Of a DNA stretch of 64,000 nt, positions 4,384-63,045 are shown piece after piece. The DNA lies in contig JAGXFP010000071.1 of NCBI GenBank assembly GCA_024637225.1, forward strand, positions 48,784 through 112,783. The letters run 5' to 3'. Origin of the DNA: Desulfobacterales bacterium (GTDB taxonomy: Bacteria; Desulfobacterota; Desulfobulbia; Desulfobulbales; JAGXFP01). How positions within the stretch are numbered: the stretch's first letter is position 1; each line of letters begins with the position of its first letter. The notes under the pieces were generated by a model that saw nothing but the letters and a program-made list of their open reading frames with translations, searched no databases and was not told the origin of the DNA. The position numbers and the translations under genes are program-made.

Positions 4384-4525
4384 GACGAGTTTGCCAAAGT
4401 CGAAAATCGAGTCATTGCGCGCGTAGCGAAGCAATCCAGATAGATGTAACTAGCTGAGAATACTGGATTGTTTCGCCGCTTTGTTCTTCGCAATGACTTG
4501 GCAAATCATTTTTTACGAGTTTGTC
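4384..4525 (-). mobile_element. MITE-like palindromic repeat, family 2 (about 142 bp)
   Basis: Its reverse complement aligns along its length with 46424-46567. The shared core is GTCATTGCG..GCGA.GCAATCC / GGATTG..CGCAATGAC, with GA(C/T)GAGTTTGC-type ends. Confidence 0.75.
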
Positions 4526-8040: not shown

Positions 8041-8164
8041 GCCACCAGTGTCTCTGAAAGCTCGGGGGGAGCGCGTTCTACCGAGCTTAAGGGCTGGGAT
8101 TGAAATGCTTTGTGTTTCGGTTACAGCCCTCGAAATTTGCGCACTTTGCTCTGACGATTTCCAA

Positions 8165-10837: not shown

Positions 10838-10960
10838 GATGAAGTTGCGGAAAGGTAAAAAACCTTCCTGCGACAGGCTCAGCACGAAGGTTAAATCAGG
10901 TAAGTTATTCCGCTCACCCTGAGCCTTTCTAAGGCTTTTCTGGCTTGTTGCGAACGCATC
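10838..10960 (-). mobile_element. MITE-like repeat, family 3 (about 123 bp)
   Basis: Its reverse complement aligns with 46313-46423 (core CCTT.GA.AGGCTCAGG.TGAGCGGAATAACTT...TTCGTGC.GA.CCTGTCG). The ends resemble the GATG.G..CGCAA.AAG terminus. Confidence 0.7.
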
Positions 10961-10966
10961 AATTTT

Positions 10967-11157
10967 GATAAAATTCGCAAAAAGTCGAGATCGTCTTAAG
11001 TTATTTTGCCAACGTGGAAAAATCCAATAGGTTAAAGCTGAGCTGGCACGAAACTTATCCCCTGTGGGTGTAAGAACAAGATTTCTCACATGCGCTCGAA
11101 ATGACAGATGTTTTTCCCGAGGGCTAAATGGGTTCCCGGACTTTTTGCGACGCCATC
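10967..11157. mobile_element. MITE-like repeat (about 191 bp) with superfamily termini
   Basis: The left end GATAAAATTCGCAAAAAGTCGAG and right end CGGACTTTTTGCGACGCCATC are inverted relative to each other. The right terminus overlaps 2 nt of the U32 stop codon. Confidence 0.65.
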
Positions 11158-12397: not shown

Positions 12398-12422
12398 GTT
12401 ATTCCATGGTCGATTAAGTTGC

Positions 12423-12549
12423 GATGGCGTCGCAAAAAGTCGCCAGCTCCTGCGTTGCTGCAAATTGTCTCGTCATTGCAGCGTACTGGAGTACGCTTCA
12501 TTCCTCGAAATTTGCGCGCCTTGGATCTGACGATTTTTGCTTAGCCATC
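12423..12549 (+). mobile_element. 127-bp MITE-like element, copy A
   Basis: GATGGCGTCGCAAAAAGTCGCC...GACGATTTTTGCTTAGCCATC, with imperfect terminal inverted repeats of about 20 bp and internal hairpins (GCTGCAA..TTGCAGC; GCGTAC-TGGA-GTACGC). It is near-identical to 62844-62970 and to the reverse complement of 18135-18261. Confidence 0.9.
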
Positions 12550-12614
12550 CTCTTTTTTGATTTTTTGCGGGCTTAATTTTTTTCTACCCGCCAGGGGGTA
12601 AGGCAAGCTATGGT

Positions 12615-12861
12615 CCTGAATCCGTGAGCGTTCGAGAGCGGTGCAGATGCAAGGCGGCGACGATGTTGATAATACTAATGGTATTTCACAAGTTGCCTAC
12701 ACGGCACTCCAAGGGCACTTCCTGCGGGGCGCAGATGCGCCGTTATCGGGCGCCTCGCTGGGTGGCGGGGTGAACCATGGCAACCTAAGGGAAAAACGAT
12801 TATCAAATGCAATTACAAACGAATAAAGTAAAATTTACCACGAAGCCGTCACGGATTCAGG
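12615..12861. repeat. inverted-repeat-bounded element (about 247 bp) upstream of mnmA
   Basis: CCTGAATCCGTGA at the left end and TCACGGATTCAGG at the right end form perfect 13-nt inverted repeats. The left 37 nt recur at 2107-2143. Confidence 0.6.
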
Positions 12862-12954
12862 ATGGTGTTAAGCCGGGATCCGTGACAAGGGTGCTATCTT
12901 ACTCTTATCCCGAGGTTTATTGCAATCTTTCCTTTGCCGGAGTTTTCAGCGTAA

Positions 12955-13998: not shown

Positions 13999-14058
13999 GC
14001 CTTATAAAAAATCCCGGCGGCCATCCCGCTTGACTAATTCGGGTAAACATATATAAAT

Positions 14059-14143
14059 GATGGCGTCGCAAAAACTCCGATCTACTGTGTCGCACCTTGG
14101 GGCACTTCCTTCGGCTGGATATTGGGATTTTTTGCCTAGTCAT
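14059..14143. mobile_element. short MITE-like element (about 85 bp), same terminus superfamily
   Basis: It starts GATGGCGTCGCAAAAACTCC and ends GGGATTTTTTGCCTAGTCATT, an inverted imperfect copy of the terminus. Confidence 0.6.
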
Positions 14144-14337
14144 TTCCTGGTTTTTGCGAAATTATCGTAAACGGCGGCGGCGCAAGAAGGCACCGGCTCT
14201 CAGCGTTGCGGTGATTGTCTGGTTTGTTGCGTGGATATGAGTCCGCGCGCTTGGCTGGAATTTGAGATGATTTTACCCCGCAAGGGGATATTTATGGAAG
14301 ATGCGTTTTCCCCCTTTCTAATTTAAAGTTCTTACCC

Positions 14338-18090: not shown

Positions 18091-18134
18091 CGAGACCGCT
18101 AATTTTGATAAACTCGCATAAAATCGAAAATAGA

Positions 18135-18261
18135 GATGGCTAAGCAAAAATCGTCAGATCCAAGGCGCGCGAATTTTGAGGAATGAAGCGTACTTCAGTA
18201 CGTTGCAATGACGAGACAATTTGCAGCAACGCAGGAGCTGGCGACTTTTTGCGACGCCATC
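18135..18261 (-). mobile_element. 127-bp MITE-like element, copy B (inverted)
   Basis: Reverse complement of copy A with a few substitutions. It ends 52 nt upstream of the alaS ATG. A solo terminus-like GATAAACTCGCATAAAATCG lies just before it, at about 18103. Confidence 0.9.
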
Positions 18262-34759: not shown

Positions 34760-34816
34760 GATGGCGGCGCAAAAAGTCGCGGGCTCCGGCGTTTGCGGCA
34801 AATTGTCTCGTCATTT
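34760..34816 (+). repeat. half-copy of the 127-bp MITE
   Basis: GATGGCGGCGCAAAAAGTCGCGGGCTCCGGCGTTTGCGGCAAATTGTCTCGTCATT matches the left half of copy A. It ends 2 nt before the yggU-like stop codon. Confidence 0.75.
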
Positions 34817-46268: not shown

Positions 46269-46312
46269 TTAATTGGTTCCGGGCCGTTCGGTGTAACGGG
46301 GCAAAGAGTGGT

Positions 46313-46423
46313 GGTGGCGCAAAAAAGTCAGAAAACCGTTCCTTCGACAGGCTCAGGATGAGCGGAATAACTTTATTGACTTAACGTTCGTGCCGAACCT
46401 GTCGAGGTGCGCTTCATCAAGGC
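46313..46423 (+). mobile_element. MITE-like repeat, family 3
   Basis: GGTGGCGCAAAAAAGTCAG terminus. The core aligns with the reverse complement of 10838-10960. Confidence 0.7.
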
Positions 46424-46567
46424 TGATGAGTTTGCAAAAAATGATTTGTCACGTCATTGCGAGGAGCAAAGCGACGAAGCAATCAAGTTCTTTCAATAAG
46501 TTAGATGTTCCTGGATTGTTTTGCTATGCTAGCGATGACAGGTTTTTTGACTTTTTGCGAACTCATC
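46424..46567 (+). mobile_element. MITE-like repeat, family 2 (144 bp)
   Basis: GATGAGTTTGCAAAAAATG...CTTTTTGCGAACTCATC terminal inverted repeats. It aligns with the reverse complement of 4384-4525. Confidence 0.8.
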
Positions 46568-46818: not shown

Positions 46819-47514
46819 ATGAAAATAAACAAATCGACAGCTAAATCGGCAAACCGGGGCAGCCGGGGCTTTTCCCTGGTCGAATTGATGATCGTGGTCG
46901 CGATTCTCGGCATCCTGGCGGTTGCGGTCGGGGTGAATATCAATTCTGCCAATAGCAGGCTGAAGTCCTTTGTCTTCAACACCAAGGCCCGCTTCAATCA
47001 GACCCGTTTCGAGGCTGTCAAGCGCAGCCGCGATGTCTATCTTGAGTTTCATCTAAACATGGACGAGACTGGTTATTCGTCGACGGCGGCGCCGGACAAC
47101 GGTTTTACGATCTGGGTGGATGAAAATGGCGATGGAAACTATACTTCATGGGACATCGGGACGGATGATGACAACAGCAACGGCGAATGTGATGCGGGCG
47201 AGGGCGATTGTGTCTTATCCGTGGTTACGTTTCCCGCTGATGGTCCGGAGATCTATCGTCCCACCATCACCGGCGGGCCGGGTACGGACGGTCCGGGGTC
47301 AATTACCATCAGCAGCGACGGGGTGACTGCACCTAGTAATCGTTTCATGTTCAGGCCCGACGGTGACTGTCCCAATAATGGTTCTGTCTATTTTTATTAC
47401 CCTTCCGGCGGCAAGGTCGCGTCCGGCCCCTGGGCGATCATCGTCAATACTGTGGGCCGGATCCGGGTTGACGAATGGCGCTCCACCAACGGCTGGCAGG
47501 GTGATTTGCCTTGA
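46819..47514 (+). CDS. GspH/FimT-like type IV minor pilin
   Basis: Prepilin N-terminal cleavage/methylation motif RG|FSLVELMIVVAILGILA with Glu at +5. First gene of the cluster. Confidence 0.75.
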   Translation: MKINKSTAKSANRGSRGFSLVELMIVVAILGILAVAVGVNINSANSRLKSFVFNTKARFNQTRFEAVKRSRDVYLEFHLNMDETGYSSTAAPDNGFTIWVDENGDGNYTSWDIGTDDDNSNGECDAGEGDCVLSVVTFPADGPEIYRPTITGGPGTDGPGSITISSDGVTAPSNRFMFRPDGDCPNNGSVYFYYPSGGKVASGPWAIIVNTVGRIRVDEWRSTNGWQGDLP

Positions 47515-47555
47515 TTTTCTTAAGATCGCCGGTCTGCCCGGGAAAAGGAAAAGAT

Positions 47556-48539
47556 ATGGATGCCGGAACTATAAAGAAAAACGGTGGTTATACCCTGGTC
47601 GAGGTGATGGTCGCCATGGCCATCTCCCTTATTGTTCTGGCCGGGGTTTATAAAGCGATTGTCGATGAGAGCGTCAATTTCGAAAAAGATGAGGCGGTCC
47701 TGGATATGCAAAACAACGCCCGGGTCGCCATCGCCAGGATTGCCCGGGATATCCGCCGGACCGGTTTTTTCGGCTGCGGCGGCGAGCTTAGCGCCAATAC
47801 GGTGGCAGGTTTCAGTTTTCCCCCGACTTCCATTGTCTTCGCCGGTGACGATTCCACTAATTCCGCCATCGATGACGGCACCGATTCGATTACCCTGCAA
47901 TTTCTGGCCGGGGATGTTCCGGTCGATGTTGATACCCCTACTACCCTGCCGTCCGCAACAGACCCCATTACCCTTTACAGGAAGGCCTTTAATAATGGTG
48001 ACACCCTCTATGTCACTGATTGTGAGGAATACGCCATTTTTGATAAGACAAATGGTACGGAGCCCTCCAAGACTGTGGAACATGGAGTCAACTTGGGTCG
48101 GGCCTACGGGACGCCTCTGCCGGCCCGGGTCTATCGTTTCGAAACGGCTGTCTATCGGGTTAACGGCGCTCAGCTAAGAGATATAAATGGGCAGGTGATC
48201 GCTAACAATATCGAGGACCTGCAGTTCGAGTTTATCACCGATTCCGATGATGACGGTGAGCTAAACGATGAAAACTGGGCCAATACCTTTACCAATGCCG
48301 CCGATGTCCGGGCCATCCGGATCTGGGTGCTGGCCATGAGCGATACGGCCTATTCCTATACCGATACCAATACCTACGACTACCCGAACAGCCCTTATCA
48401 CAGCGGGACAGCTCCGTACAATACCAACGGAACCGGCGGCTCGCCCGCCTCCCAGACCGGGTTGTCCGCGGATCTAAAACATCGCTACCGGTATCTGGCT
48501 TCTACTATTGTCTACCTGCGTAACGCCGCGATTGTCTGA
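47556..48539 (+). CDS. pilW: PilW-like type IV minor pilin
   Basis: G|YTLVEVMVAMAISLIVL prepilin motif. Size and position are typical of PilW. The ATG at 47556 has an AAAGGAAAAG RBS. Confidence 0.7.
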   Translation: MDAGTIKKNGGYTLVEVMVAMAISLIVLAGVYKAIVDESVNFEKDEAVLDMQNNARVAIARIARDIRRTGFFGCGGELSANTVAGFSFPPTSIVFAGDDSTNSAIDDGTDSITLQFLAGDVPVDVDTPTTLPSATDPITLYRKAFNNGDTLYVTDCEEYAIFDKTNGTEPSKTVEHGVNLGRAYGTPLPARVYRFETAVYRVNGAQLRDINGQVIANNIEDLQFEFITDSDDDGELNDENWANTFTNAADVRAIRIWVLAMSDTAYSYTDTNTYDYPNSPYHSGTAPYNTNGTGGSPASQTGLSADLKHRYRYLASTIVYLRNAAIV

Positions 48540-49660: not shown

Positions 49661-52600
49661 ATGGAGCAAGGTAATGCCATGAAGGGGATGATCGGAAGAG
49701 AAGCCTGGAAGCTCGTGATTTTTGCAATTTTTCTGGGATTGCTGCCGGCTCTCAACGTCGGCGCGGTTAGGGCTGCCGGCGAGACCATGTCTGACTATAC
49801 GAAACTGCCGGCCTTTCTTGAAACCGGCTTAAAACCCAACCTGCTGCTGTTGATTGATAATTCGGCCAGCATGTACGATCCGGCCTATCTGGATCCGGTT
49901 GTTGAAGAACTGGATGCTCAAGGCGACCCCACCGGTAAGACATTATCCGGCGGGATCGATTTTTGTTTTGCCGATGATTACGACAATGCCGTGGCCTATG
50001 CCGGCTATTTCAGTCCGCTGGCGGAAATCTGGTATAGATATGTCGATTCCCCGTTCTGCTCCAATGACACTTACGCCAATGAGTCCGATTGTACGGCTAA
50101 TTCGGGAACATGGAATGATGCCGACGACCAGTTTATCCAGCTATCGAAGAGCGAAGCTGAAACTTTTTGTTCGGACGAAACCGGCATCGAATATGCCAGC
50201 GACGACCTGTGCATCACCGTTAACTCCGGAACAGACCCCGATACGGTGACGGCTTTTGCCGCCAAGGGCAGATTCCTGAACTGGCTGGCCGCCTCCAAGT
50301 TCGATGTCGAAAAGGAGATCCTCAGCGGCGGTAAATATCATCAAACCAATAACGAACTGATTATGGAAACCCGGGGCTGCATGGGCAAAAGGTTTGTCAA
50401 GTCTGAGGAGGTCTACCTCAACGGCGATTCCACCACCACCCCATATTATTCCACCTTTGCGATCAGGCCGCCCGATGACGGCTCAGACGGGACCGATGAG
50501 ATCACCGATGATCAGGCCTACAACGGCTCTTCGCACAACACCAGGATCGAGATATACAAAGTCAGTTTGACCGGGTTCGATGCCGATAGCTGTAATACCG
50601 TCATCTCGGAGTTCACCGAATCGCGGCCGGAGCTCGGCAGCATAACCTCGGTAATCGATACCTGTCTGGGCCCGGAGACCCCGGAGGAATCCGTGGTCTT
50701 GAACCACGTAACCCAGGAGTGCTGGTACTATAATGTCTTTGGTGTGTTTCAGTCGGGTGAGGGCTCGGTTACTTCGCTGAAGGGCAAATGCGAGGATATA
50801 TATAACGCCAGTTCCGGAGACAAACCGCCGCCCGACGATTACCAGAGTCCCGCCGAACTGTCGGCCGGCGAGCTGTGTTACGGTGAATACGATTCATCCC
50901 ATTCAGCAGGGGGCGAGCCTTGGGGGTCGGGCTACATGGGTCAGTGCTGGGAGGAGCAGTATGCTAGGTGGGACGATAATCCGTGCGTAGGCGACGGGAC
51001 CAATGTCTCGGCGGCCACCGCCATCCAGGACGCGAACGAATTCTGGTATTACTGCGCCGATAACGACAGCGATAGCGTGGATGAATATATCAGGTGCGGT
51101 AAAAACCAGCGACATTCCTGTCAAGCCAGCGACTGGACCGTATGGCAAACTCCCGTTTCAGCCGATCCATCCGGTGTGCCCGCGGAAGTATACTGGACCA
51201 ATGACGAGGTGGTAGCCGGCAGTGAGACCACCGCCAAGCAGGGCAACACTTGCGCGCAATATGCTCTGGAATCCTTTTGCACGGAACTGGATCAGCAAAC
51301 CACGGTTGATCCCTCCGATGGTATAAAGGGCTCAAACAGCGGAGCTAAAATCCCGGCGACCTTGGTGGATTACGCGGTGAGCGGCCAACTTGGCGACCCC
51401 CTGAAAACGCTGAAAGGCAGAGTGGTTCCGCCGCAAGAGCCGGTGGGCTTGATCAATGAATTCAAATACAACCTCCGCATGGGAGCGATGGTCTTTAACG
51501 ACGGCACCGCCACGGAGTGCGCCTCGGTGGAGGACCGTCCCGGCAGCGGGCGTTATGTGGCTTCTCTTTATGGTTGTATGGAAGTCGATCATACCAACGG
51601 CGCAATCCTGAGTAATCCTCCCAAAAAAGACGGGGGGCGGATAATTGCATATATCGATGAAGGTGACGGTCACATCGACTCACTGGTGGAGGCGATTAAC
51701 GATGTCAATGCCGATACCTGGACTCCGACCGCCGAGGCGATGTACAACGCGATCGGCTACTTTACCCAGGACAGCACCAATGACCTCCGGATCAACCCGC
51801 CGACCGGGGACCCTGCCCTGGGGTTTGGCGGCGATTTTATCCGCGATAGCGATTGGGGACTTAATTTCGGGGCCTCCGATATGAACGCCTGGGCGATCGG
51901 AACTCCCTACGCGAAAGGCGATATTGTCTATACGGCCGCCAATAAAATGGGCTATACCAAGCTTTATCGGGCCAAAAACGCCGGGACCTCCGCCTATTGC
52001 GCCGATTGCAGCTATATCGAGGAGGACAGCGGGGTGAAATGGATGCCTTATGACCCGGTCCAGGCCGGCTGCCAGAGCAACAATGTTCTTCTGATCACCG
52101 ACGGCGCCTCGACGGCCGATATCCATGGGAATGGTATCGCCTCCGGGATGACCGACTTCGTCACCGCGGGCAACGACGACAGCGATTTGGCCGCCACCTG
52201 GATTGCGACCGAGACCGAGCCGACAGATTACGAATGCATGAGCTGGATTGACAAAACGGGGGCGAGCAATACCGACGGCGTATTTGATTTTGGAGAACCG
52301 ATTGTCCATAAAAATTACGGCAGCACCCTGCTCGACGATCTGACTTACTATGGGCATAGCGGCTCGACAATTTATTCCCATTCGGCTATCGGCGGCGTCG
52401 ACAAGGAGCCGATCAAGACCCATATCGTCGCGGCCGGCACCCTGCGGAATGACGCTCCCGGTCTGGAATGTAATTCCCGGACCATTCTCAACTCGGCGGC
52501 CGACAACGGCGGCACCACTCTGGTTGAGGCCGCCGACCCCACCGACCTTGAAGAGAAATTGCGGGATGTTTTCGAGGCCATCGGCGGCGAGGTTTCGTCC

Positions 52601-55600
52601 GGTTCGGCCGCCTCGGTCATCTCCCACTCTCGTAGCGGTGACGGCGCGATTTATCAGGCGATCTTCTACCCCAAGCAGGTCGACGCCCAGATGAACGAGG
52701 TCGACTGGACTGGCGATGTCCATGCCTTGTGGCTTGACGCCCACGGCAATATCCGCGAGGATTGCGGCGCCACTGACTGTACGGGAACGACCGGCGATAA
52801 AACAATGAACCCCCGGGTTGACCGAATAGTGACGTTTTACACGGATGCCACCGGCTCCGCCATGGCAAGGTTGTTCAGCGATGCGAATGGCGACGGCAGT
52901 TACGATAATTCCGCCTCCTGTTCCGACCCGACCTATACCAATGAAGACGATTGCGAGGACAATTTCAAGGTCTGGAGCTACGCGGACAATCCTGATTTTG
53001 TCGATGATGGTGTCTTGTTGAAGGATTTGCTTTATATCTGGAGCGCCGCCGACTGGCTGGCCGACGCCTCGCCTGGCCAGAGAGCTTATGACAGCGTCGC
53101 TTCGGAGCGCTATATCTTCACGATGCTGCCTGACGCCAGCGGCAATCCAGACATGGTGGCTTTTACCACGAGCGCCCTTGGTCCGCCGAGTGGAGCGTTT
53201 ACAGCCGATGAGTATGACGGTTACTTAAACGCCTTCTCCTCGCTGGATTCCGATATAAACCGCACCGCTGACGGGATCGTCAACTATGTCCGGGGGCTGG
53301 ACCAGACCGGTTACCGGTCGAGGCAGATCGACTGGACCCCCTCGACCGGTCTGGAGACCGTTAAGCTGGGCGATATCATTCATTCCACCCCGACCCTGGT
53401 CGGATCGCCGGCGGAAAACTACGATGTAATCTATGGCGATCCCACCTATCGGAACTTTCGGAAAAAATATCAGAACCGGCGGGCGGTGATCTACGCCGGC
53501 GGCAACGACGGTGGCATGCACGCCTTTAACGGCGGCTATTACGACCGGCACAACAAGCGGTTTCTTAAGGCCCCGCCGGTGCCCGGGTCCGACCCGGTTG
53601 TCTACGAGACCCAATATGATCTGGCCGCCGAGTTATGGATGTATGTGCCGAAAAATATTTTACCGCATCTCCGCTGGCTGACCGATCATAATTATGGTGA
53701 CGGCCATGTCTATTATGTTGACGGCAAGCCCTATATCTTCGATGGCAAGATTTTCTCGGAAGAAGCGGCATGTACTGATGCCGATTTGACGAATGATGAC
53801 CAGTGTCTCCATCCCGGCGGCTGGGGCACGGTCCTGGTCGGCGGCATGCGCTTCGGCGGCGGTAATATCGGGGTGGACATTGATGGTGCCGGTGATGACG
53901 AGATCATTCGCTCCGCCTATTTTATTCTGGACATCACCAATCCCGAATATCCGCCGGTGGTCCTGGCGGAATTCACCGATGAGGACTTGGGATATACCAT
54001 CGGGTCGCCCACCGCCATTCCGATGTTGCGCTGCGATAAGAACACCGTCGCCGGCCTGGGCGACTGCAATACCAAGAACTGGCCGATGGACTGGTATCTG
54101 GCCTTCGGCTCCGGCCCCCACAGCGATGATCCGGTTCCGGCCGGCCCCCAGGAAGGGATGCGGGGGGTGAGCGACCAAAACGCCAAGCTTTATGTAATGA
54201 GGTTGGGCGGCACCAATACCAGCGGGCTGACCCCGGCCTCTCTCGGCCATCTCGGCAGCGGCCAGGTCGCCAGCGGCGTTGTCTCCTTCAGCAACCAGCC
54301 GATTCTGGTGAGTGTCAATGGCGTAACTTCCGGGCAATGCAGTGATCCTGCCCATACCACCGAGGCTGACTGTTTGGGCGCCGCGGAAATATGGATTAGC
54401 GATCCCTTTACACCCGGAGCCTGCAGTGATTTCACTTCGGCCGACGAGGCGGCTTGCCTGGCCGCCGGTAAGGTGTGGAACCCGGTTTCCTGTAAGGGTA
54501 TTCCCGGCGTTTGGGATACCTATTCCTCTTTTAACTGCGTGGGTTCCGGCCCGGGCCGCTATTGGGATCACTGGTGGGGATTGAATACTGGAAGGGGATG
54601 TTACGAGAGGACTTCCACCGAGGAGTGTCTGGCAAGGTCAGGTTGGTGGGTTCCGGGAAATAACGCTTCGGGGATATGCAGCGACACCCGGGATACGAGT
54701 AAAAGTGAGTGCTTGCGTTTTTACGGCACTTGGAAAAATACCTATCCGAATTCCTTTTTCGGCGATTTTATCGCGGTCGATTATGATCTGGACTTCAAGA
54801 CCGATACGCTTTATTTCGGTTCGGTCCTGGATACTCGGAGCTGGGCCGGCCATGAGGCCCACGGCGGCGCTTTGCATCGGCTGGTGAGCGGCGATAACCC
54901 CGACCCGGCCACCTGGAGCTTTAATCTGTTTTCCAACGTCGGCAGTCCGGTTGCCGCCGCCCCCTCGGTGGCCTCCGACGGCCAGCGGGCCTGGGTCTAT
55001 TTCGGCACCGGACGCTATTACTCCGCCGAGGAGGACAAGGCGATTGCCACCCCGTTCCAGCCCACCAGGTTTCTGGGGCTTAAGGAGCGCTACGGCGACG
55101 ACGGCAATATGGACCTTACCCTGCCGAACGGCGGCAATCTGGTCGATGTTACCGCGACCTGGGTCAAGCCGGGCGGGGAGCTCGTTTCACCTCCACCTTC
55201 AATCACGGGCGTTGGCACGTTCGATGAGTTGAACGTTAAAATCTCGGAACTGGATACCGACACGACGAATGACGACAAGGATATATATCACGGCTGGAAA
55301 ATCAATCTGGCCGGCCGGGAGCGGGTTATCGGCCAACCCGCCATTCTGGGGGATATCGTGACCTTCACCTCGTATATTCCATCGGATGACCCCTGTGAGC
55401 CCGATGGTACCAGTTACCTGTGGGCGGTATATTACCGGACCGGCACCGCTTACCATAAATCGGTTATCGGCACGAAGGTCAGGACTGAAGGCACCGAGGT
55501 CTTGAGAAAGGTCGGCCTCGGCAGCGGACTTTCCACCACCCCCAATATCCATGCCGGCGCCGGCGATGGTACCAAGGCCTTTGTCCAGAGCAGTACCGGC

Positions 55601-55696
55601 GCTATCCTGAGTATCGAACAGACCAATCCCGGCGTGGTAAAAAGCGGGATGAGATCGTGGCGGGAGCTGAGCGGAAAAGGTAGTAGCTGCAATTGA
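49661..55696 (+). CDS. pilY1: giant PilY1/PilC-family type IV pilus tip adhesin (2011 aa) with split vWA motifs and Cys-rich insertions
   Basis: Signal peptide. vWA/MIDAS elements are LLLLIDNSASM (aa 61-71), NLRMGAMVFND, TWTPTAEAM and VLLITDGAST (aa 809-818). PilY1 propeller signatures are LGDIIHSTPTLVGSP, IYAGGNDGGMHAFN, WGTVLVGGMRFGG, YFILDITNP and DYDLDFKTDTLYFG. Confidence 0.85.
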   Translation: MEQGNAMKGMIGREAWKLVIFAIFLGLLPALNVGAVRAAGETMSDYTKLPAFLETGLKPNLLLLIDNSASMYDPAYLDPVVEELDAQGDPTGKTLSGGIDFCFADDYDNAVAYAGYFSPLAEIWYRYVDSPFCSNDTYANESDCTANSGTWNDADDQFIQLSKSEAETFCSDETGIEYASDDLCITVNSGTDPDTVTAFAAKGRFLNWLAASKFDVEKEILSGGKYHQTNNELIMETRGCMGKRFVKSEEVYLNGDSTTTPYYSTFAIRPPDDGSDGTDEITDDQAYNGSSHNTRIEIYKVSLTGFDADSCNTVISEFTESRPELGSITSVIDTCLGPETPEESVVLNHVTQECWYYNVFGVFQSGEGSVTSLKGKCEDIYNASSGDKPPPDDYQSPAELSAGELCYGEYDSSHSAGGEPWGSGYMGQCWEEQYARWDDNPCVGDGTNVSAATAIQDANEFWYYCADNDSDSVDEYIRCGKNQRHSCQASDWTVWQTPVSADPSGVPAEVYWTNDEVVAGSETTAKQGNTCAQYALESFCTELDQQTTVDPSDGIKGSNSGAKIPATLVDYAVSGQLGDPLKTLKGRVVPPQEPVGLINEFKYNLRMGAMVFNDGTATECASVEDRPGSGRYVASLYGCMEVDHTNGAILSNPPKKDGGRIIAYIDEGDGHIDSLVEAINDVNADTWTPTAEAMYNAIGYFTQDSTNDLRINPPTGDPALGFGGDFIRDSDWGLNFGASDMNAWAIGTPYAKGDIVYTAANKMGYTKLYRAKNAGTSAYCADCSYIEEDSGVKWMPYDPVQAGCQSNNVLLITDGASTADIHGNGIASGMTDFVTAGNDDSDLAATWIATETEPTDYECMSWIDKTGASNTDGVFDFGEPIVHKNYGSTLLDDLTYYGHSGSTIYSHSAIGGVDKEPIKTHIVAAGTLRNDAPGLECNSRTILNSAADNGGTTLVEAADPTDLEEKLRDVFEAIGGEVSSGSAASVISHSRSGDGAIYQAIFYPKQVDAQMNEVDWTGDVHALWLDAHGNIREDCGATDCTGTTGDKTMNPRVDRIVTFYTDATGSAMARLFSDANGDGSYDNSASCSDPTYTNEDDCEDNFKVWSYADNPDFVDDGVLLKDLLYIWSAADWLADASPGQRAYDSVASERYIFTMLPDASGNPDMVAFTTSALGPPSGAFTADEYDGYLNAFSSLDSDINRTADGIVNYVRGLDQTGYRSRQIDWTPSTGLETVKLGDIIHSTPTLVGSPAENYDVIYGDPTYRNFRKKYQNRRAVIYAGGNDGGMHAFNGGYYDRHNKRFLKAPPVPGSDPVVYETQYDLAAELWMYVPKNILPHLRWLTDHNYGDGHVYYVDGKPYIFDGKIFSEEAACTDADLTNDDQCLHPGGWGTVLVGGMRFGGGNIGVDIDGAGDDEIIRSAYFILDITNPEYPPVVLAEFTDEDLGYTIGSPTAIPMLRCDKNTVAGLGDCNTKNWPMDWYLAFGSGPHSDDPVPAGPQEGMRGVSDQNAKLYVMRLGGTNTSGLTPASLGHLGSGQVASGVVSFSNQPILVSVNGVTSGQCSDPAHTTEADCLGAAEIWISDPFTPGACSDFTSADEAACLAAGKVWNPVSCKGIPGVWDTYSSFNCVGSGPGRYWDHWWGLNTGRGCYERTSTEECLARSGWWVPGNNASGICSDTRDTSKSECLRFYGTWKNTYPNSFFGDFIAVDYDLDFKTDTLYFGSVLDTRSWAGHEAHGGALHRLVSGDNPDPATWSFNLFSNVGSPVAAAPSVASDGQRAWVYFGTGRYYSAEEDKAIATPFQPTRFLGLKERYGDDGNMDLTLPNGGNLVDVTATWVKPGGELVSPPPSITGVGTFDELNVKISELDTDTTNDDKDIYHGWKINLAGRERVIGQPAILGDIVTFTSYIPSDDPCEPDGTSYLWAVYYRTGTAYHKSVIGTKVRTEGTEVLRKVGLGSGLSTTPNIHAGAGDGTKAFVQSSTGAILSIEQTNPGVVKSGMRSWRELSGKGSSCN

Positions 55697-56884: not shown

Positions 56885-58675
56885 ATGAGCTATATCAATA
56901 ACTCCACATACCTTTTCGACCTGCTGGTCCGGGAGGAGCTGATCTCGGAAGAGCAGAAGGAGATGCTTGCCCGAAAGGGTTCCCATCAGCGCCAGCTCCT
57001 GCTCCGGGAGCGGCGCAAGAAGAGCGGTTCGACCCGGCGGGTCCGGGAGCCGGATCTGGTCGAGGTTATTGTCTCCCTCCACCTGGAGATTCCCGGCGAC
57101 AAACATCATCCCCTGACCGAAGAGATGATCATGCGGACCGTGGCCGGGGACCACGATTTGCCGTTCAAGAAGCTCGACCCCCTGGAACTCGATCTGGAGG
57201 TGGTCACCAGGACCATTCCCAAGAATTACGCGGTCAAGCATCTGATGATCCCGTTCGCCCTTAAAAACGGGGTGCACGAGATCGCCATGTACGATCCGGT
57301 CAAGCTCGAGGTCCTGGAGGAAATCGAGCGGGCCAACAAGATCACCATCAAGCCCTATATCAGCACCCGGACCGATATCAGCCGGATGCTGGCCGAGTTT
57401 TTCGGCTTCCAGAGCTCAATTTCGGCGGCCGAGGTCCATCTGGCCAAGCCGCTGGTCGATCTCGGCAACCTCGAGCAGTACGTCAAGATCAATCGGGCCG
57501 GCGAGATCACCTCTTCCGACCATCATATCACCGCCGCGGTCGATCATTTTTTCACCTACGCCTTCGATCAGCGGGCCAGCGACATCCATATCGAGCCGAA
57601 ACGGGAAAAGAGCCTGATCCGGCTGCGGATCGACGGGGTGCTCCACACCATCTACACCCTGCCGATGGCGGTCCATTCGGCCATCGTTTCCCGACTGAAG
57701 ACCCTGGCCCGGATGAACATCGCCGAGCGCCGGCGCCCCCAGGACGGCCGGATCAAGGTGGATCACGAGGATCAGGAGGCCGAGATCCGGGTCTCCACCG
57801 TGCCGGTGGCCTTCGGCGAGAAGGTGGTGATGCGGATTCTCGATTCGGCGGTGATGTTCCAGGATGTCGAGACCCTGGGGTTCAGCGCCCGCGATCTCGA
57901 AATCTACCGGGGCTTCATGAAGAGCCCCCACGGCATCGTCCTGGTCACCGGCCCGACCGGCAGCGGTAAATCGACCACCCTCTACTCAACCTTAAAGCAG
58001 ATCTCCACTTCCGAAAACAATGTGACCACCGTCGAAGATCCGATCGAGATGATTCACGAGGAGTTCAACCAGATCGCGGTCCAGAACCAGATCGACGTGA
58101 CCTTTTCGACGATCCTCCGCAATATCCTCCGCCAGGACCCGGATATCATCATGATCGGCGAGATCCGGGATCTGGATACGGCGGTCAATGCGATCCAGGC
58201 CGCCCTCACCGGCCATCTGGTTTTTTCGACTCTGCACACCAACGATGCGGTCTCCTCGATCAGCCGGCTTACCGATCTGGGCACCCAGCCCTTTCTGATC
58301 GGCTCGACTCTGTTGGGGGCCATGGCCCAGCGCCTGGTCCGGACCATCTGCCCGGACTGCCGGCAGCCCGTCAAGGTCGATGCCGGCCTGCTGCGCAATT
58401 TCGGCTTTCCCGTCGAGGGCGAGGGCAAGATCGAACTCCAGGCCGGGAAGGGCTGCCGGCAATGCCGGCAAACCGGCTTTCTGGGGCGGTCGGGCGTTTT
58501 CGAGATATTCCCCGTTTCCGATGCGATCAATCGGATGATCTGCCAGGGGGAGTCCGAAGCGGAGATCCGCGAGCAGGCGATCAAGGAAGGGATGACCACC
58601 CTTAAGGAAGATGCCTGGCGGAAGGTTAAAAAGGGGATCACCACCTACGAGGAGGCGGCCCGGGTCACCGGGTAA
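56885..58675 (+). CDS. pilB: GspE/PilB-family type IV pilus assembly ATPase
   Basis: T2SSE N-terminal domain, Walker A VTGPTGSGKSTTLY, Walker B IMIGEIRD, and the tetracysteine Zn motif CPDC...CRQC. Confidence 0.9.
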   Translation: MSYINNSTYLFDLLVREELISEEQKEMLARKGSHQRQLLLRERRKKSGSTRRVREPDLVEVIVSLHLEIPGDKHHPLTEEMIMRTVAGDHDLPFKKLDPLELDLEVVTRTIPKNYAVKHLMIPFALKNGVHEIAMYDPVKLEVLEEIERANKITIKPYISTRTDISRMLAEFFGFQSSISAAEVHLAKPLVDLGNLEQYVKINRAGEITSSDHHITAAVDHFFTYAFDQRASDIHIEPKREKSLIRLRIDGVLHTIYTLPMAVHSAIVSRLKTLARMNIAERRRPQDGRIKVDHEDQEAEIRVSTVPVAFGEKVVMRILDSAVMFQDVETLGFSARDLEIYRGFMKSPHGIVLVTGPTGSGKSTTLYSTLKQISTSENNVTTVEDPIEMIHEEFNQIAVQNQIDVTFSTILRNILRQDPDIIMIGEIRDLDTAVNAIQAALTGHLVFSTLHTNDAVSSISRLTDLGTQPFLIGSTLLGAMAQRLVRTICPDCRQPVKVDAGLLRNFGFPVEGEGKIELQAGKGCRQCRQTGFLGRSGVFEIFPVSDAINRMICQGESEAEIREQAIKEGMTTLKEDAWRKVKKGITTYEEAARVTG

Positions 58676-58830
58676 TCGCTTACAGGGCACCACATCTTGC
58701 GGCGATCGGTCCGGCTTACTTACTGAAGTACGCATCGCCGTCCCGCTTGCCGCAACCTGCGGCACCCCGTAATCGCTTACCGGATGGAAGAATGGCAGAA
58801 CCTGGGCGGCTTATCCAGTGATCGGGTAAG
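58672..58830 (+). repeat. about 160-bp palindromic repeat, copy 1
   Basis: GTAATCGCTTACAGGGCACCACATCTTGCGGCGATCG...GTACGCATCGCCGTCCCGCTTGCCGCAACCTGCGGCACCCCGTAATCGCTTACC...GGGCGGCTTATCC. It starts inside the pilB stop codon and matches 58943-59105. Confidence 0.85.
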
Positions 58831-58942: not shown

Positions 58943-59105
58943 GTAAGCGATCACAGGGCACCACATTTTGCGGCGATCGACCCGGCTCACGTACAAAATG
59001 TACGCATCGCCGTCCCGCTTGCCGCAATCTGCGGCACCCTGTAAACGCTTACCGACCGGGAGATTGGCCAATTATGGGCGGCTTATCCCCGTAATCGGTT
59101 ACGCA
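58943..59105 (+). repeat. about 160-bp palindromic repeat, copy 2
   Basis: Direct repeat of 58672-58830 with scattered substitutions. It ends 38 nt before the smpB start. Confidence 0.85.
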
Positions 59106-59660: not shown

Positions 59661-60019
59661 GGGGGCGAAACGGATTCGACGGGGACATATAAGCTTGGGC
59701 TGCGTGCCGAGTTCTGATAACTCGTTAAACTGTCAGATATAAACATAATCGCTGACGATTATGCACATGCTGTAGCAGCGTAAATTGCTACCGTTCATCA
59801 TAACCCCTTCCCGTGGGGTTTTGACTGAACGTCGCTAATACGGGATAGCCTGCCGGCTGCGCTTGCCGGCCGATGGGCGAAACCTCAGCAAGATAGTGTT
59901 GGAAATTCTAGTCCTGGAGATGCTCCGACACGATAAATAACTTTTTGACAGGACTATGCATGTAGACGCCTACAGGGGAGTGTTTCCGGACGCGGGTTCG
60001 ACTCCCGCCGCCTCCACCA
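59661..60019 (+). ncRNA. ssrA: tmRNA (SsrA), tag reading frame ...ADDYAHAVAA*
   Basis: 5' GGGGGCGAAACGGATTCGACGGGG and 3' GGACGCGGGTTCGACTCCCGCCGCCTCCACCA. The acceptor stem has a G3:U pair. The tag ORF GCT GAC GAT TAT GCA CAT GCT GTA GCA GCG TAA is at 59751-59783. Confidence 0.95.
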
Positions 60020-61721: not shown

Positions 61722-62840
61722 ATGAAACTTGAGATTTTCCCTTTATTGATATTGCTGGGTGCCATCTTTCCGCTCCATTCCTTCGGTTTTGACGAGGGGA
61801 GTTGCGTGGCGGGCGATTGCGTAAACGGCCAGGGCACCTGGGAGTTTCCCAACGGTTCCAAGTTCATCGGGGGCTGGCAGGAGGGGAAGAGGCACGGCAA
61901 GGTGATCTGGGTTTCGGTTGAGGGCAAAAAGGACGTGCGGGAGTACAAGAACGGGGTCCGGCAGGGAAAATGTTTCGAGGGTGACTGCGAGAACGGCACC
62001 GGCCTGATCGTCTATCTGGATCAATCGATGTACGCCGGCGAATTCAAGAACGGCCGAAGAGATGGCCAGGGGGTCTGGTCCCAACCCCGGGGCTCTAAAT
62101 ATGAAGGATCCTGGGAAGACGACCAGATTCAGGGCCATGGCACCCTGACCTATGCCAACGGCTCCAGATATGTCGGCGGGGTCGATAACGGTCGCCAGCA
62201 TGGCCGCGGTACCTATTCCTTTGCCGACGGCAGCAGTTATGAGGGCGAGTGGCGTTATGGCAAGCAGCAGGGCAACGGCCGGGGGGAGCTGGCCAATAAT
62301 GACGGCTCCAGATATGTCGGCGAGATAAAGGATGGGGTGCCAAACGGCCAGGGAACCTTTACCCATCCCGACGGCAGCCGCTATGTCGGGGAATGGCGGG
62401 AGGGGGTTTACCACGGCCGGGGGAAATACCGGTTTGCCGACGGCGGTAAATACGAGGGAGAATTCAAGGACGGCCTGTTCCACGGGCAGGGATTTCTGAC
62501 CGCCACCGGCGGCAGCACTTATCAGGGAGAACACAAAAACGGCAAGCCGGACGGAGCCGGGGTCTATCAATATGCCGACGGCGGCCGCTATGTCGGGGAA
62601 TACAGGGAAGGCAAATGCCATGGCTGGGGGACCTACACCTATCCCGAAGGCCGGGAGTACGTCGGGGAATGGCGGGACGGCAAGCCGGCCGGTTACGGCA
62701 CCTTGACCTATATCGACGGCAGCAAATATGTCGGCGAGTGGCAGGACGGCAAAAAACACGGGCAGGGGGCCATGGTTGAGGAAGGGGTCAGTGTCCTGGC
62801 CGGCATGTGGCTGGCGGGTGTTTATGTCGGAGTTCAATAG
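61722..62840 (+). CDS. secreted MORN-repeat protein (372 aa)
   Basis: Signal peptide, then at least 12 tandem Y.G.(W/F)..G...G.G units (for example RYVGEWREGVYHGRG). Two C..GDC.NG.G motifs occur near the N-terminus. Confidence 0.85.
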   Translation: MKLEIFPLLILLGAIFPLHSFGFDEGSCVAGDCVNGQGTWEFPNGSKFIGGWQEGKRHGKVIWVSVEGKKDVREYKNGVRQGKCFEGDCENGTGLIVYLDQSMYAGEFKNGRRDGQGVWSQPRGSKYEGSWEDDQIQGHGTLTYANGSRYVGGVDNGRQHGRGTYSFADGSSYEGEWRYGKQQGNGRGELANNDGSRYVGEIKDGVPNGQGTFTHPDGSRYVGEWREGVYHGRGKYRFADGGKYEGEFKDGLFHGQGFLTATGGSTYQGEHKNGKPDGAGVYQYADGGRYVGEYREGKCHGWGTYTYPEGREYVGEWRDGKPAGYGTLTYIDGSKYVGEWQDGKKHGQGAMVEEGVSVLAGMWLAGVYVGVQ

Positions 62841-62843
62841 TTT

Positions 62844-62970
62844 GATGGCGTCGCAAAAAGTCGCCAGCTCCTGCGTTGCTGCAAATTGTCTCGTCTTTGC
62901 AGCGTACTGAAGTACGCCTCATTCCTCGAAATTTACGCGCCTTGGATCTGACGATTTTTGCTTAGCCATC
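62844..62970 (+). mobile_element. 127-bp MITE-like element, copy C
   Basis: Near-identical to copy A (a handful of substitutions). It starts 3 nt after the MORN gene stop codon. Confidence 0.9.
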
Positions 62971-62972
62971 TC

Positions 62973-63045
62973 GAGGCTTTTTGCGATAGCGAAGCGAAGC
63001 AATTCAGGATCTTCGCTTCCCTCGCAATGGCTTGATTTTAGTTGT
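62973..63045. repeat. fragment of a family-2-like palindromic repeat
   Basis: GCGATAGCGAAGCGAAGCAATTCAGG / CTTCGCTTCCCTCGCAATGGC palindromic core without clear termini. Confidence 0.4.

Follow-up and report, generated by a model that had tools for sequence, protein, structure and literature searches.

Three near-identical intergenic repeats lie in the 64,000-nt stretch of contig JAGXFP010000071.1 analysed here (the window), and the question which they raise is what kind of sequence they are and how they came to occupy their present sites. In the first-pass annotation they were described, from the letters alone, as a MITE-like element of 127 bp. MITEs are defined as elements of ~50-600 bp which carry no transposase gene (PMC6382973; also PMC3184786). 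The results of the present analysis indicate that the repeats are copies of such a non-autonomous DNA transposon, with a unit of ~155 bp, a reading to which we assign a probability of roughly 0.85. The repeats have the size of a MITE, terminal inverted repeats, duplicated targets and many dispersed copies, with sites that are filled in some genomes and empty at the orthologous position in others, and they contain no transposase gene or domain; the earlier designation was therefore retained. The copies and fragments present in the window are as follows.

12423 to 12549, + strand: copy 1, core of 127 nt with left terminal repeat GATGGCGTCGCAAAAAGTC, long hairpin interior and inner repeat GACGATTTTTGCTTAGCCATC.
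12550 to 12577, + strand: tail of copy 1, a spacer and the degenerate right terminal repeat GATTTTTTGCGGGCTTAAT.
18135 to 18261, - strand: copy 2, core of 127 nt, in the recA-alaS spacer.
18107 to 18134, - strand: tail of copy 2, with degenerate right terminal repeat GATTTTATGCGAGTTTATC.
62844 to 62970, + strand: copy 3, core of 127 nt, 3' of a MORN-repeat gene on the same strand.
62971 to 62986, + strand: truncated tail of copy 3, TCGAGGCTTTTTGCGA, running into a different short hairpin repeat.
34760 to 34815, + strand: half copy of 56 nt, element positions 1-55, 89% identity.
8128 to 8160, + strand: decayed internal fragment of 33 nt, element positions 81-114, 88% identity, intergenic.

Direct reading, a 39-mer search and a repeat finder agreed on the positions and strands of the three copies, which are those given in the first-pass annotation. 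The first 39 nt, used as query, gave three exact matches in the window compared to none expected from shuffles, and the pairwise identity of the copies was 95-97% (repeat finder). A half copy previously placed at 34760-34816 was recovered within one nucleotide of that position; it is truncated at the 3' end of a convergent DUF167 gene. The decayed fragment previously placed at ~8129-8160 was also recovered, although the match was weak (34 aligned nt, 88%, E = 5e-4 in a sensitive BLASTN search with copy 1 against a small database). The intergenic location claimed for all copies was confirmed for the three copies, the half copy and the fragment.

Copy 1 precedes the ATG of a peptidase-U32 gene (- strand) by 25 nt and is divergent from mnmA; the left end of copy 2 is 52 nt upstream of the alaS ATG and its tail adjoins a decayed fragment of another superfamily element. 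Copy 3 starts 3 nt past the MORN-repeat gene (TAG stop), and 194 nt separate its end from an ABC-F gene. It has the gene-end placement which is common in the family, while the other two copies are antisense to the gene starts that they face. An ORF at 62728-62910, attributed to copy 3 in the first-pass annotation as spurious, is indeed a mechanical ORF overlapping that copy, but it also overlaps the 3' end of the MORN-repeat gene. Directly 3' of copy 3, and replacing its right end, is a short GC-rich hairpin repeat (62971-63040, GCGATAGCGAAGCGAAG...CTTCGCTTCCCTCGC), which resembles the interior of the 'family C' elements listed further on.

To define the unit, 62 full copies were extracted with their flanks from 22 Desulfobulbales assemblies, and 56 of them were aligned (alignment A2). 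In nearly all 62 copies the 127-nt core was followed by a tail of ~28 nt carrying the true right inverted repeat; the consensus of the tail is CCCnAAAAT-GACTTTTT(A/G)CGAnnnCATC, which reads as the left end in reverse complement, and the left and right terminal repeats are perfectly complementary in L057 and L008. The full unit is ~155 nt and the earlier length of 127 bp is that of the core only. Its layout is the left repeat GATGGCGTCGCAAAAAGTC, the hairpin interior, an inner diverged repeat, a spacer of ~9 nt and the right repeat GACTTTTT[A/G]CGAnnnCATC. The imperfect terminal inverted repeats of ~20 bp described earlier were correct at the left end; as the true right repeat is found ~28 nt past the core, the right repeat then quoted, GACGATTTTTGCTTAGCCATC, is a diverged version of the terminal repeat which lies further in. 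Among the window copies, 1 and 2 have a degenerate true right end, for which reason the repeat pair which they form (I1) extends to 153 nt, and that of copy 3 is cut off by the other short hairpin repeat.

Target-site duplications of 6-7 bp were found around the ~155-nt unit. Exact 6-mer direct repeats flanked core plus tail in 24 of the 62 copies, compared to 1.2 expected (maximum 6 in 500 re-pairings of the flanks), and with up to one mismatch the figure was 39 of 62, compared to 14.1 expected from re-paired flanks. The 6 nt to the left of GATGG recur at 28-29 nt beyond the core, where they directly follow ...CATC(A), and several of the duplications reach 7 nt. No duplication signal was obtained with a loosely anchored right end, while it appeared once that end was anchored. 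The reconstructed target is A/T- or purine-rich, of the form AAWNWT and usually followed by two purines. The window copies, whose right ends have decayed, are without clean duplications (4/6 matches or none).

Orthologous neighbourhoods from seven relatives (L103-L105 and L205-L208), located via their RecA homologues, were compared with the window. The recA-alaS spacer of the window, copy 2 included, measures 318 nt. That of L205-L207, the RecA proteins of which fall in the same 90%-identity cluster as that of the window, is empty and has 61 nt; elsewhere the spacer contains 194 nt of unrelated sequence (L103 and L104) or has a length of 57 nt (L105). Copy 2 was found only in the window genome and was absent from L103, L104, L105 and L205-L208. 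Copy 1, at the U32-mnmA site, was present in four of the six genomes compared (the window, L103, L205 and L206); L208 and L105 lack it. Other insertions are common to sister genomes (L007/L044, L018/L039 and L087/L092) and, taken with the polymorphism of the window sites, they indicate that the family holds both old and recent insertions.

If the repeats were duplicated gene ends or terminators homogenised by gene conversion, with no transposition involved, the close similarity of copies within a genome and the position of many of them at gene ends would be accounted for. We consider this highly improbable, given that the flanking genes are unrelated housekeeping genes, that similarity ends exactly at the repeat ends, where the target is duplicated, and that filled and empty sites occur among close relatives. 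The copies were found to belong to a ~155-nt repeat unit, and not to gene ends or a longer functional RNA, the two alternatives which had been named in the first-pass annotation.

Some copies of the family ('family A') have themselves been entered by, or lie against, other elements. Those at L026 (3110-3400) and L053 are interrupted by a nested palindromic insert of ~140 nt, and tandem or adjacent copies were observed in L047, L072, L068 and L044, which suggests insertion beside or into existing elements. In addition, a second, unrelated MITE family is present directly downstream of copy 1 (12598-12865), and part of an inverted copy is found at 2104-2143. This family has the ends (T)CCTGAATCCGTGA and TCACGGATTCAGG(A) and the duplication ATGG; there is a clean empty site in L205 and L206, copies occur in L008, L021, L077, L078 and L102, and in L208 a copy lies in the recA-alaS spacer on the recA stop codon.

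On either strand, the core was predicted to form a single long, imperfect hairpin with a stem-loop at its apex (dG -49.9 kcal/mol for the + strand and -54.3 kcal/mol for the - strand; z -4.9 and -6.2), in place of the two internal hairpins described earlier, and a copy from a distant clade folds identically. Covariation was assessed by mapping the single-sequence fold onto alignment A2 (56 copies). Standard pairs were formed in 95.4% of pair cells, compared to 31-40% in control structures in which the 3' partner was slid by 1-3 columns. Four pairs covaried strongly (24:110 GC/AU, 27:107 CG/GC/AU, 41:94 AU/CG and 58:77 GC/AU), and changes on both sides were counted in 92 cells compared to 37.6 in shuffles (0 of 500 shuffles reached 92). 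As judged from this alignment, compensatory changes have preserved the hairpin over the whole core. Since the covarying pairs differ between clades, they represent few independent events, and compensation within a palindrome can also come from template switching or gene conversion instead of selection.

That the compensatory changes cover the whole hairpin, and not the ends alone, is consistent with a co-opted RNA element, which would have arrived by transposition and of which the resident copies would be kept for a function of the transcribed hairpin in 3' untranslated or inter-gene regions. This proposal overlaps with that of a MITE, and we regard it as possible but not probable. The hairpin could act in 3'-end protection, as a processing site, as a weak terminator or as a roadblock slowing ribosomes at the stop. 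In two of three orthologous pairs the core was 96.9% alike compared to 90-91% at the third codon positions of the flanking genes, as a retained function would predict, whereas in the third pair the core was less conserved than its flanks. Also weighing against such a function, the two strands had similar numbers of G:U wobbles once one fixed U:G pair was set aside (49 for the - strand, 45 for the + strand), a symmetry which favours neither RNA strand and so gives no sign that one of them is selected. Rfam contained no family for the element, either at the gathering score or with E values up to 10: only tmRNA passed the gathering score in the window, and the best match on the element was TarB, with 17 bits, the gathering score of that family being 80. 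Predictions of canonical promoters and terminators in or at the three window copies were negative.

Clustered palindromic repeats between genes and near stop codons are also a feature of REP, BIME and REPIN sequences, and spread by a RAYT (Y1) transposase via single-stranded DNA hairpins would suit an intergenic palindrome which is often clustered or in tandem and folds well as single-stranded DNA. Spread of the REP type leaves no target duplication. REP-type families are 20-40 nt in length, carry a GTAG/CGTC tag and are spread by RAYT proteins (PMC3733652, PMC3116915), while the unit described here is ~155 nt, ends in GATGG and is flanked by direct target repeats of 6-7 bp, and no Y1 transposase domain was detected among the window proteins tested. 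From the target duplications, the absence of the GTAG/CGTC tag and the lack of a RAYT gene among those found, it follows that the element is not of the REP/REPIN type, and we assign that origin only a very small probability.

The ends of the element are not confined to this family. The terminal motif GATGnnnnnGCAAAAA occurs 17 times in the window compared to 1.8 times expected, and it ends several other small elements with different interiors, both in the window and in other genomes. Those identified in the window are listed below.

10967 to 11157, - strand: superfamily relative with an identical left terminal repeat and a different interior.
14059 to 14166, + strand: superfamily relative of 108 nt, consisting of left repeat, inner repeat, spacer and right repeat.
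10838 to 10960, + strand: 'family B' relative with interior CGACAGGCTCAG...; the right end fits the terminal motif and the left end is degenerate.
46310 to 46418, + strand: second 'family B' copy, directly adjoining a family C copy.
46425 to 46567, + strand: 'family C' relative of 143 nt, with ends GATGAGTTTGCAAAAA and GATGAGTTCGCAAAAA.
4384 to 4525, - strand: second 'family C' copy, 77% complementary to 46436-46554, with degenerate ends.

The window copies are one sub-family of this larger end-sharing set, which was not noticed in the first-pass annotation. The first two bases of the 10967-11157 element form part of the TGA stop of the peptidase-U32 gene (at 11139-11157, - strand), and conservation of this junction in L103, L105 and L208 points to an old insertion. 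In L103, L104 and L105 the orthologous site also retains the left end of the 14059-14166 element, and copies related to the 'family B' element at 10838-10960 were found in L003 and L012. Superfamily elements often abut one another, which fits a target resembling the element's own ...CATCAA end.

Two observations concern the genes beside these relatives. The peptidase-U32 gene has a superfamily element on its stop codon as well as copy 1 ahead of its start. At 14031-14074, directly before the left end of the 14059-14166 element and upstream of a MiaB-like radical-SAM gene, there is a promoter-like sequence (TTGACT-N17-TATAAAT) which is invariant in four genomes; from its position, the element would form the 5' end of any transcript arising there.

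A scan with the left-end 19 nt (one genome per species) returned at least 102 blocks. The element itself gave at least 96 matches in 23 sources, and BLASTN was positive in at least 22 assemblies besides that of the window, so that many copies are present in many genomes. Among the matches listed, almost all were to metagenome-assembled genomes of Desulfobulbales (Desulfurivibrionaceae, Desulfocapsaceae, Desulfobulbaceae and unclassified relatives), and many were at contig ends, as expected of a repeat which breaks assemblies. Cores of one genome or clade were 93-97% identical, and those of different clades 85-88%, values which are biased upward as the copy set was seeded with an exact 19-mer. 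This lineage pattern fits vertically inherited source copies which would have amplified within lineages, and a core identity of 85-90% across families of one order is high for a purely selfish element. A typical Desulfobulbales copy was also present in a metagenome-assembled genome labelled 'Leptospira biflexa' (L056, contig DYNZ01000109.1), probably through wrong binning or labelling of the public record.

Neither Rfam nor the searchable literature (queried with MITE plus Desulfobulbales genera, sequence words and ISDol1) yielded a description of the element. It is newly described, its kind (MITE) being already known, and the properties which set it apart, namely an orientation-biased insertion that rebuilds stop codons, a hairpin compensated over its full length and ends common to several families of an order, were documented by sequence comparison.

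A parent transposase was sought in the window and beyond it. Among the window ORFs of at least 100 aa which were tested (39 proteins by Pfam, and the ATP-synthase operon by synteny), no transposase family was found, in agreement with the earlier statement that the window holds no cognate transposase; the ORFs tested were housekeeping, pilus and cytochrome genes only. No autonomous partner with matching ends was detected in ~0.8 Mb of fetched flanking DNA (102 genome blocks), and an all-against-all comparison of the ORFs in the fetched loci revealed no repeated transposase-like ORF, the largest cluster being sigma-54 activators. When viral contigs were searched with a degenerate pattern of the ends, only single chance matches without an inverted partner were obtained, many of them in related phage contigs, and the plasmid collection gave no match. 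Repeat pairs spaced 0.4-4 kb apart in L046, L063, L100, L026 and L034 were considered as candidate parents and rejected, as they enclose ordinary genes or nested elements; the solo left repeats in L045 and L101 were rejected also, being followed by ordinary genes.

The duplications of 6-7 bp recall the ISDol1 group of ISNCY, which makes duplications of this length and was first found in a sulfate reducer. An ISNCY/ISDol1 group of insertion sequences is recognised (PMC8147514). In the mechanism which we propose, a transposase encoded elsewhere would recognise the ~19-bp ends, and the same ends flank the other small elements; the parent gene would be flanked by GATGnnnnnCGCAAAAAGTC ends with 6-7-bp duplications. 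Insertion would take place into A/T- or purine-rich targets of 6-7 bp (AAWNWT plus two purines), which would be duplicated in the process, and the copies that survive would very often be those at the end of a gene on the same strand. There, the last T of the duplicated target together with the GA of the element would rebuild a TGA stop and so leave the protein unchanged, and in operons the right-hand copy of the target could preserve the ribosome binding site (RBS) of the next gene. As part of the 3' untranslated or inter-gene region, the element would then probably be co-transcribed and form a long RNA hairpin. We infer the transposase, the transcription and any effect on expression, whereas the anatomy, the target duplications, the polymorphism of insertion sites, the distribution, the conserved hairpin and the placement on stop codons were observed directly in the sequences.

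Placement was assessed in the 62 copies. For 35 left ends (56%), an ORF of 100 codons or more on the same strand had its stop no more than 12 nt away, compared to 4.1% of random non-genic sites, 3.5% for the internal repeat and 15% for other superfamily ends. In 19 of the 62, the TGA stop consists of the last target base and the first two bases of the element (T|GATGG). Ten of these 19 ORFs were checked by Pfam and proved to be complete housekeeping genes with the last domain reaching the C-terminus (rpoN, a radical-SAM gene, murF, zwf, ribF, fmt, a glutamine amidotransferase, efp, an S24 peptidase and an NFACT-domain gene), while ORFs entering the element in the other two frames were rare (~3 each). 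In the reconstructed empty sites the last target T was followed by GA, AA or AG in 15 of 24, so that insertion usually swapped one stop for another. Approximately 8-10 copies are in tight operon spacers, where the RBS and start codon of the next gene follow ~10-20 nt past the right end, and in some cases the RBS is the duplicated target itself (L084 and L027). The equivalent placement of the right end was 4-5 times rarer (6-9 of 62 vs 35 of 62 left ends).

This pattern may reflect a target preference together with an asymmetric target, or selection among insertions, including an orientation-dependent effect of the transcribed hairpin; the position on stop codons in particular could stem from selection among insertions and not from targeting. 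For a co-opted RNA, the left/right bias is a point in favour, as it exists despite the presence of TGATG at both ends and suggests an orientation-dependent effect of the transcript, and the copies in tight operon spacers point the same way; comparable roles have been reported for ERIC, and many repeats are co-transcribed at gene 3' ends (PMC3184786). Against it, two of the three window copies are antisense to gene starts. A more specific proposal combines the two lines of thought. In it the element would be a transposon homing to stop codons in a fixed orientation, with the target AAWNWT|RR, the stop rebuilt and the downstream RBS kept, and its hairpin, which begins at the stop codon and includes the overlapping stop/start UGAUG, would have been co-opted throughout the Desulfobulbales to adjust termination, ribosome release or the stability of mRNA for housekeeping genes. 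We consider this proposal doubtful. Liang, Rudd and Deutscher (2015) are said to have found that REPs at up to ~15 nt from a stop codon reduce translation of the upstream gene, which offers a possible analogy for copies starting at the stop codon. If either targeting or co-option is true, the family would provide a natural system for the harmless insertion of a transposon into compact genomes and for the effect of a stop-codon hairpin on expression.

The junction on which this placement turns (T|GATGG, at 12422-12427 and at the equivalent positions in all copies) reads as the overlapping stop/start UGAUG. Its ATG, inside TGATGG, opens a frame beginning MASQKVA..., and a small protein-coding gene might be supposed, since the start overlaps the upstream stop and the frame is open across the core in 32 of the 62 copies. 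Variation in the element tracks base-pair compensation and not codon positions, however, and the copies occur in both orientations to genes, without an RBS of their own. The frame stops after 21 codons in nearly every copy of the window clade and after 13 to >60 codons in other clades, and an open frame is expected from inheritance of a stop-free consensus, so that a gene of this kind is very unlikely. In the window clade the frame ends at a UGA in the apical loop, while in other clades it mostly runs for 40 to >60 codons. Small proteins are probably annotated falsely on account of it, and it is conceivable that re-initiation would unwind the hairpin.

Among known systems, the MITE described here most resembles ERIC (IRU) in size, fold, gene-end location and cross-genus conservation, and Correia elements are also similar. 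With the ERIC elements of Enterobacteriaceae, which are MITEs of ~127 bp, it has in common the size, an imperfect palindrome forming a long hairpin, the intergenic location, conservation across genera and the lack of a known transposase. ERIC copies are often co-transcribed at gene 3' ends, have orientation-dependent effects on mRNA and have a TA flank (PMC3184786). They differ in that flank, which contrasts with the A/T-rich duplications of 6-7 bp, and in the phylum of their hosts, and the extra inner copy of the terminal repeat and the tail belong to the Desulfobulbales element; no sequence similarity to the ERIC consensus was apparent.

The Correia (NEMIS) elements of Neisseria, MITEs of 104-157 bp, are alike in having terminal repeats of ~20-26 bp, many copies and sub-families with different interiors; they duplicate TA. 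No sequence similarity to them was seen, and the window copies differ in having no consensus promoter. In Correia, positions beside genes can affect expression, and an IHF site and functional promoters are present (PMC3184786). The element can also be set beside Chunjie, by description only, as the MITE of another anaerobe formerly placed in the Deltaproteobacteria, although the length differs. The parent insertion sequence of Chunjie is known and, according to the title of its paper, this MITE reportedly inserted in an operon without disturbing it; some of the Desulfobulbales copies also lie between a stop codon and the next RBS. Chunjie, from Geobacter uraniireducens, is 178-235 bp in length (PMC3184786). 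MITEAba12 of Acinetobacter is a 113-bp element with duplications in 40% of copies and an A/T-rich target (PMC6382973). The Desulfobulbales element also has terminal repeats, a similarly partial set of duplications (39% exact) and an A/T-rich target, but MITEAba12 has a co-resident parent (ISAba12), duplications of 9 bp and stops in all six frames, in contrast to the element described here, for which no parent was found and which has duplications of 6-7 bp and one open frame.

Repeats of this kind break metagenome assemblies and generate false small ORFs of the MASQKVA... type, while their insertion polymorphism provides strain markers for uncultured, sulfur-cycling Desulfobulbales. Of wider interest are the use of one terminal-repeat set to end several element families across an order, the preservation of the hairpin through compensatory changes, and the strong placement on the stop codons or in the operon spacers of core genes (rpoN, efp, fmt, murF, zwf and recA-alaS).

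Further features of the window were noted in passing. An 85% identical direct repeat (58672-58816 and 58943-59088, spaced 271 nt) is flanked by a type II/IV secretion ATPase gene and smpB, with the tmRNA gene (59661-60019) downstream. Genes resembling GspH and PilW, with N-terminal methylation motifs, are present at 46819-48539, and an ORF of 2011 aa with no Pfam match (49661-55696) lies inside a minor-pilin-like gene cluster.
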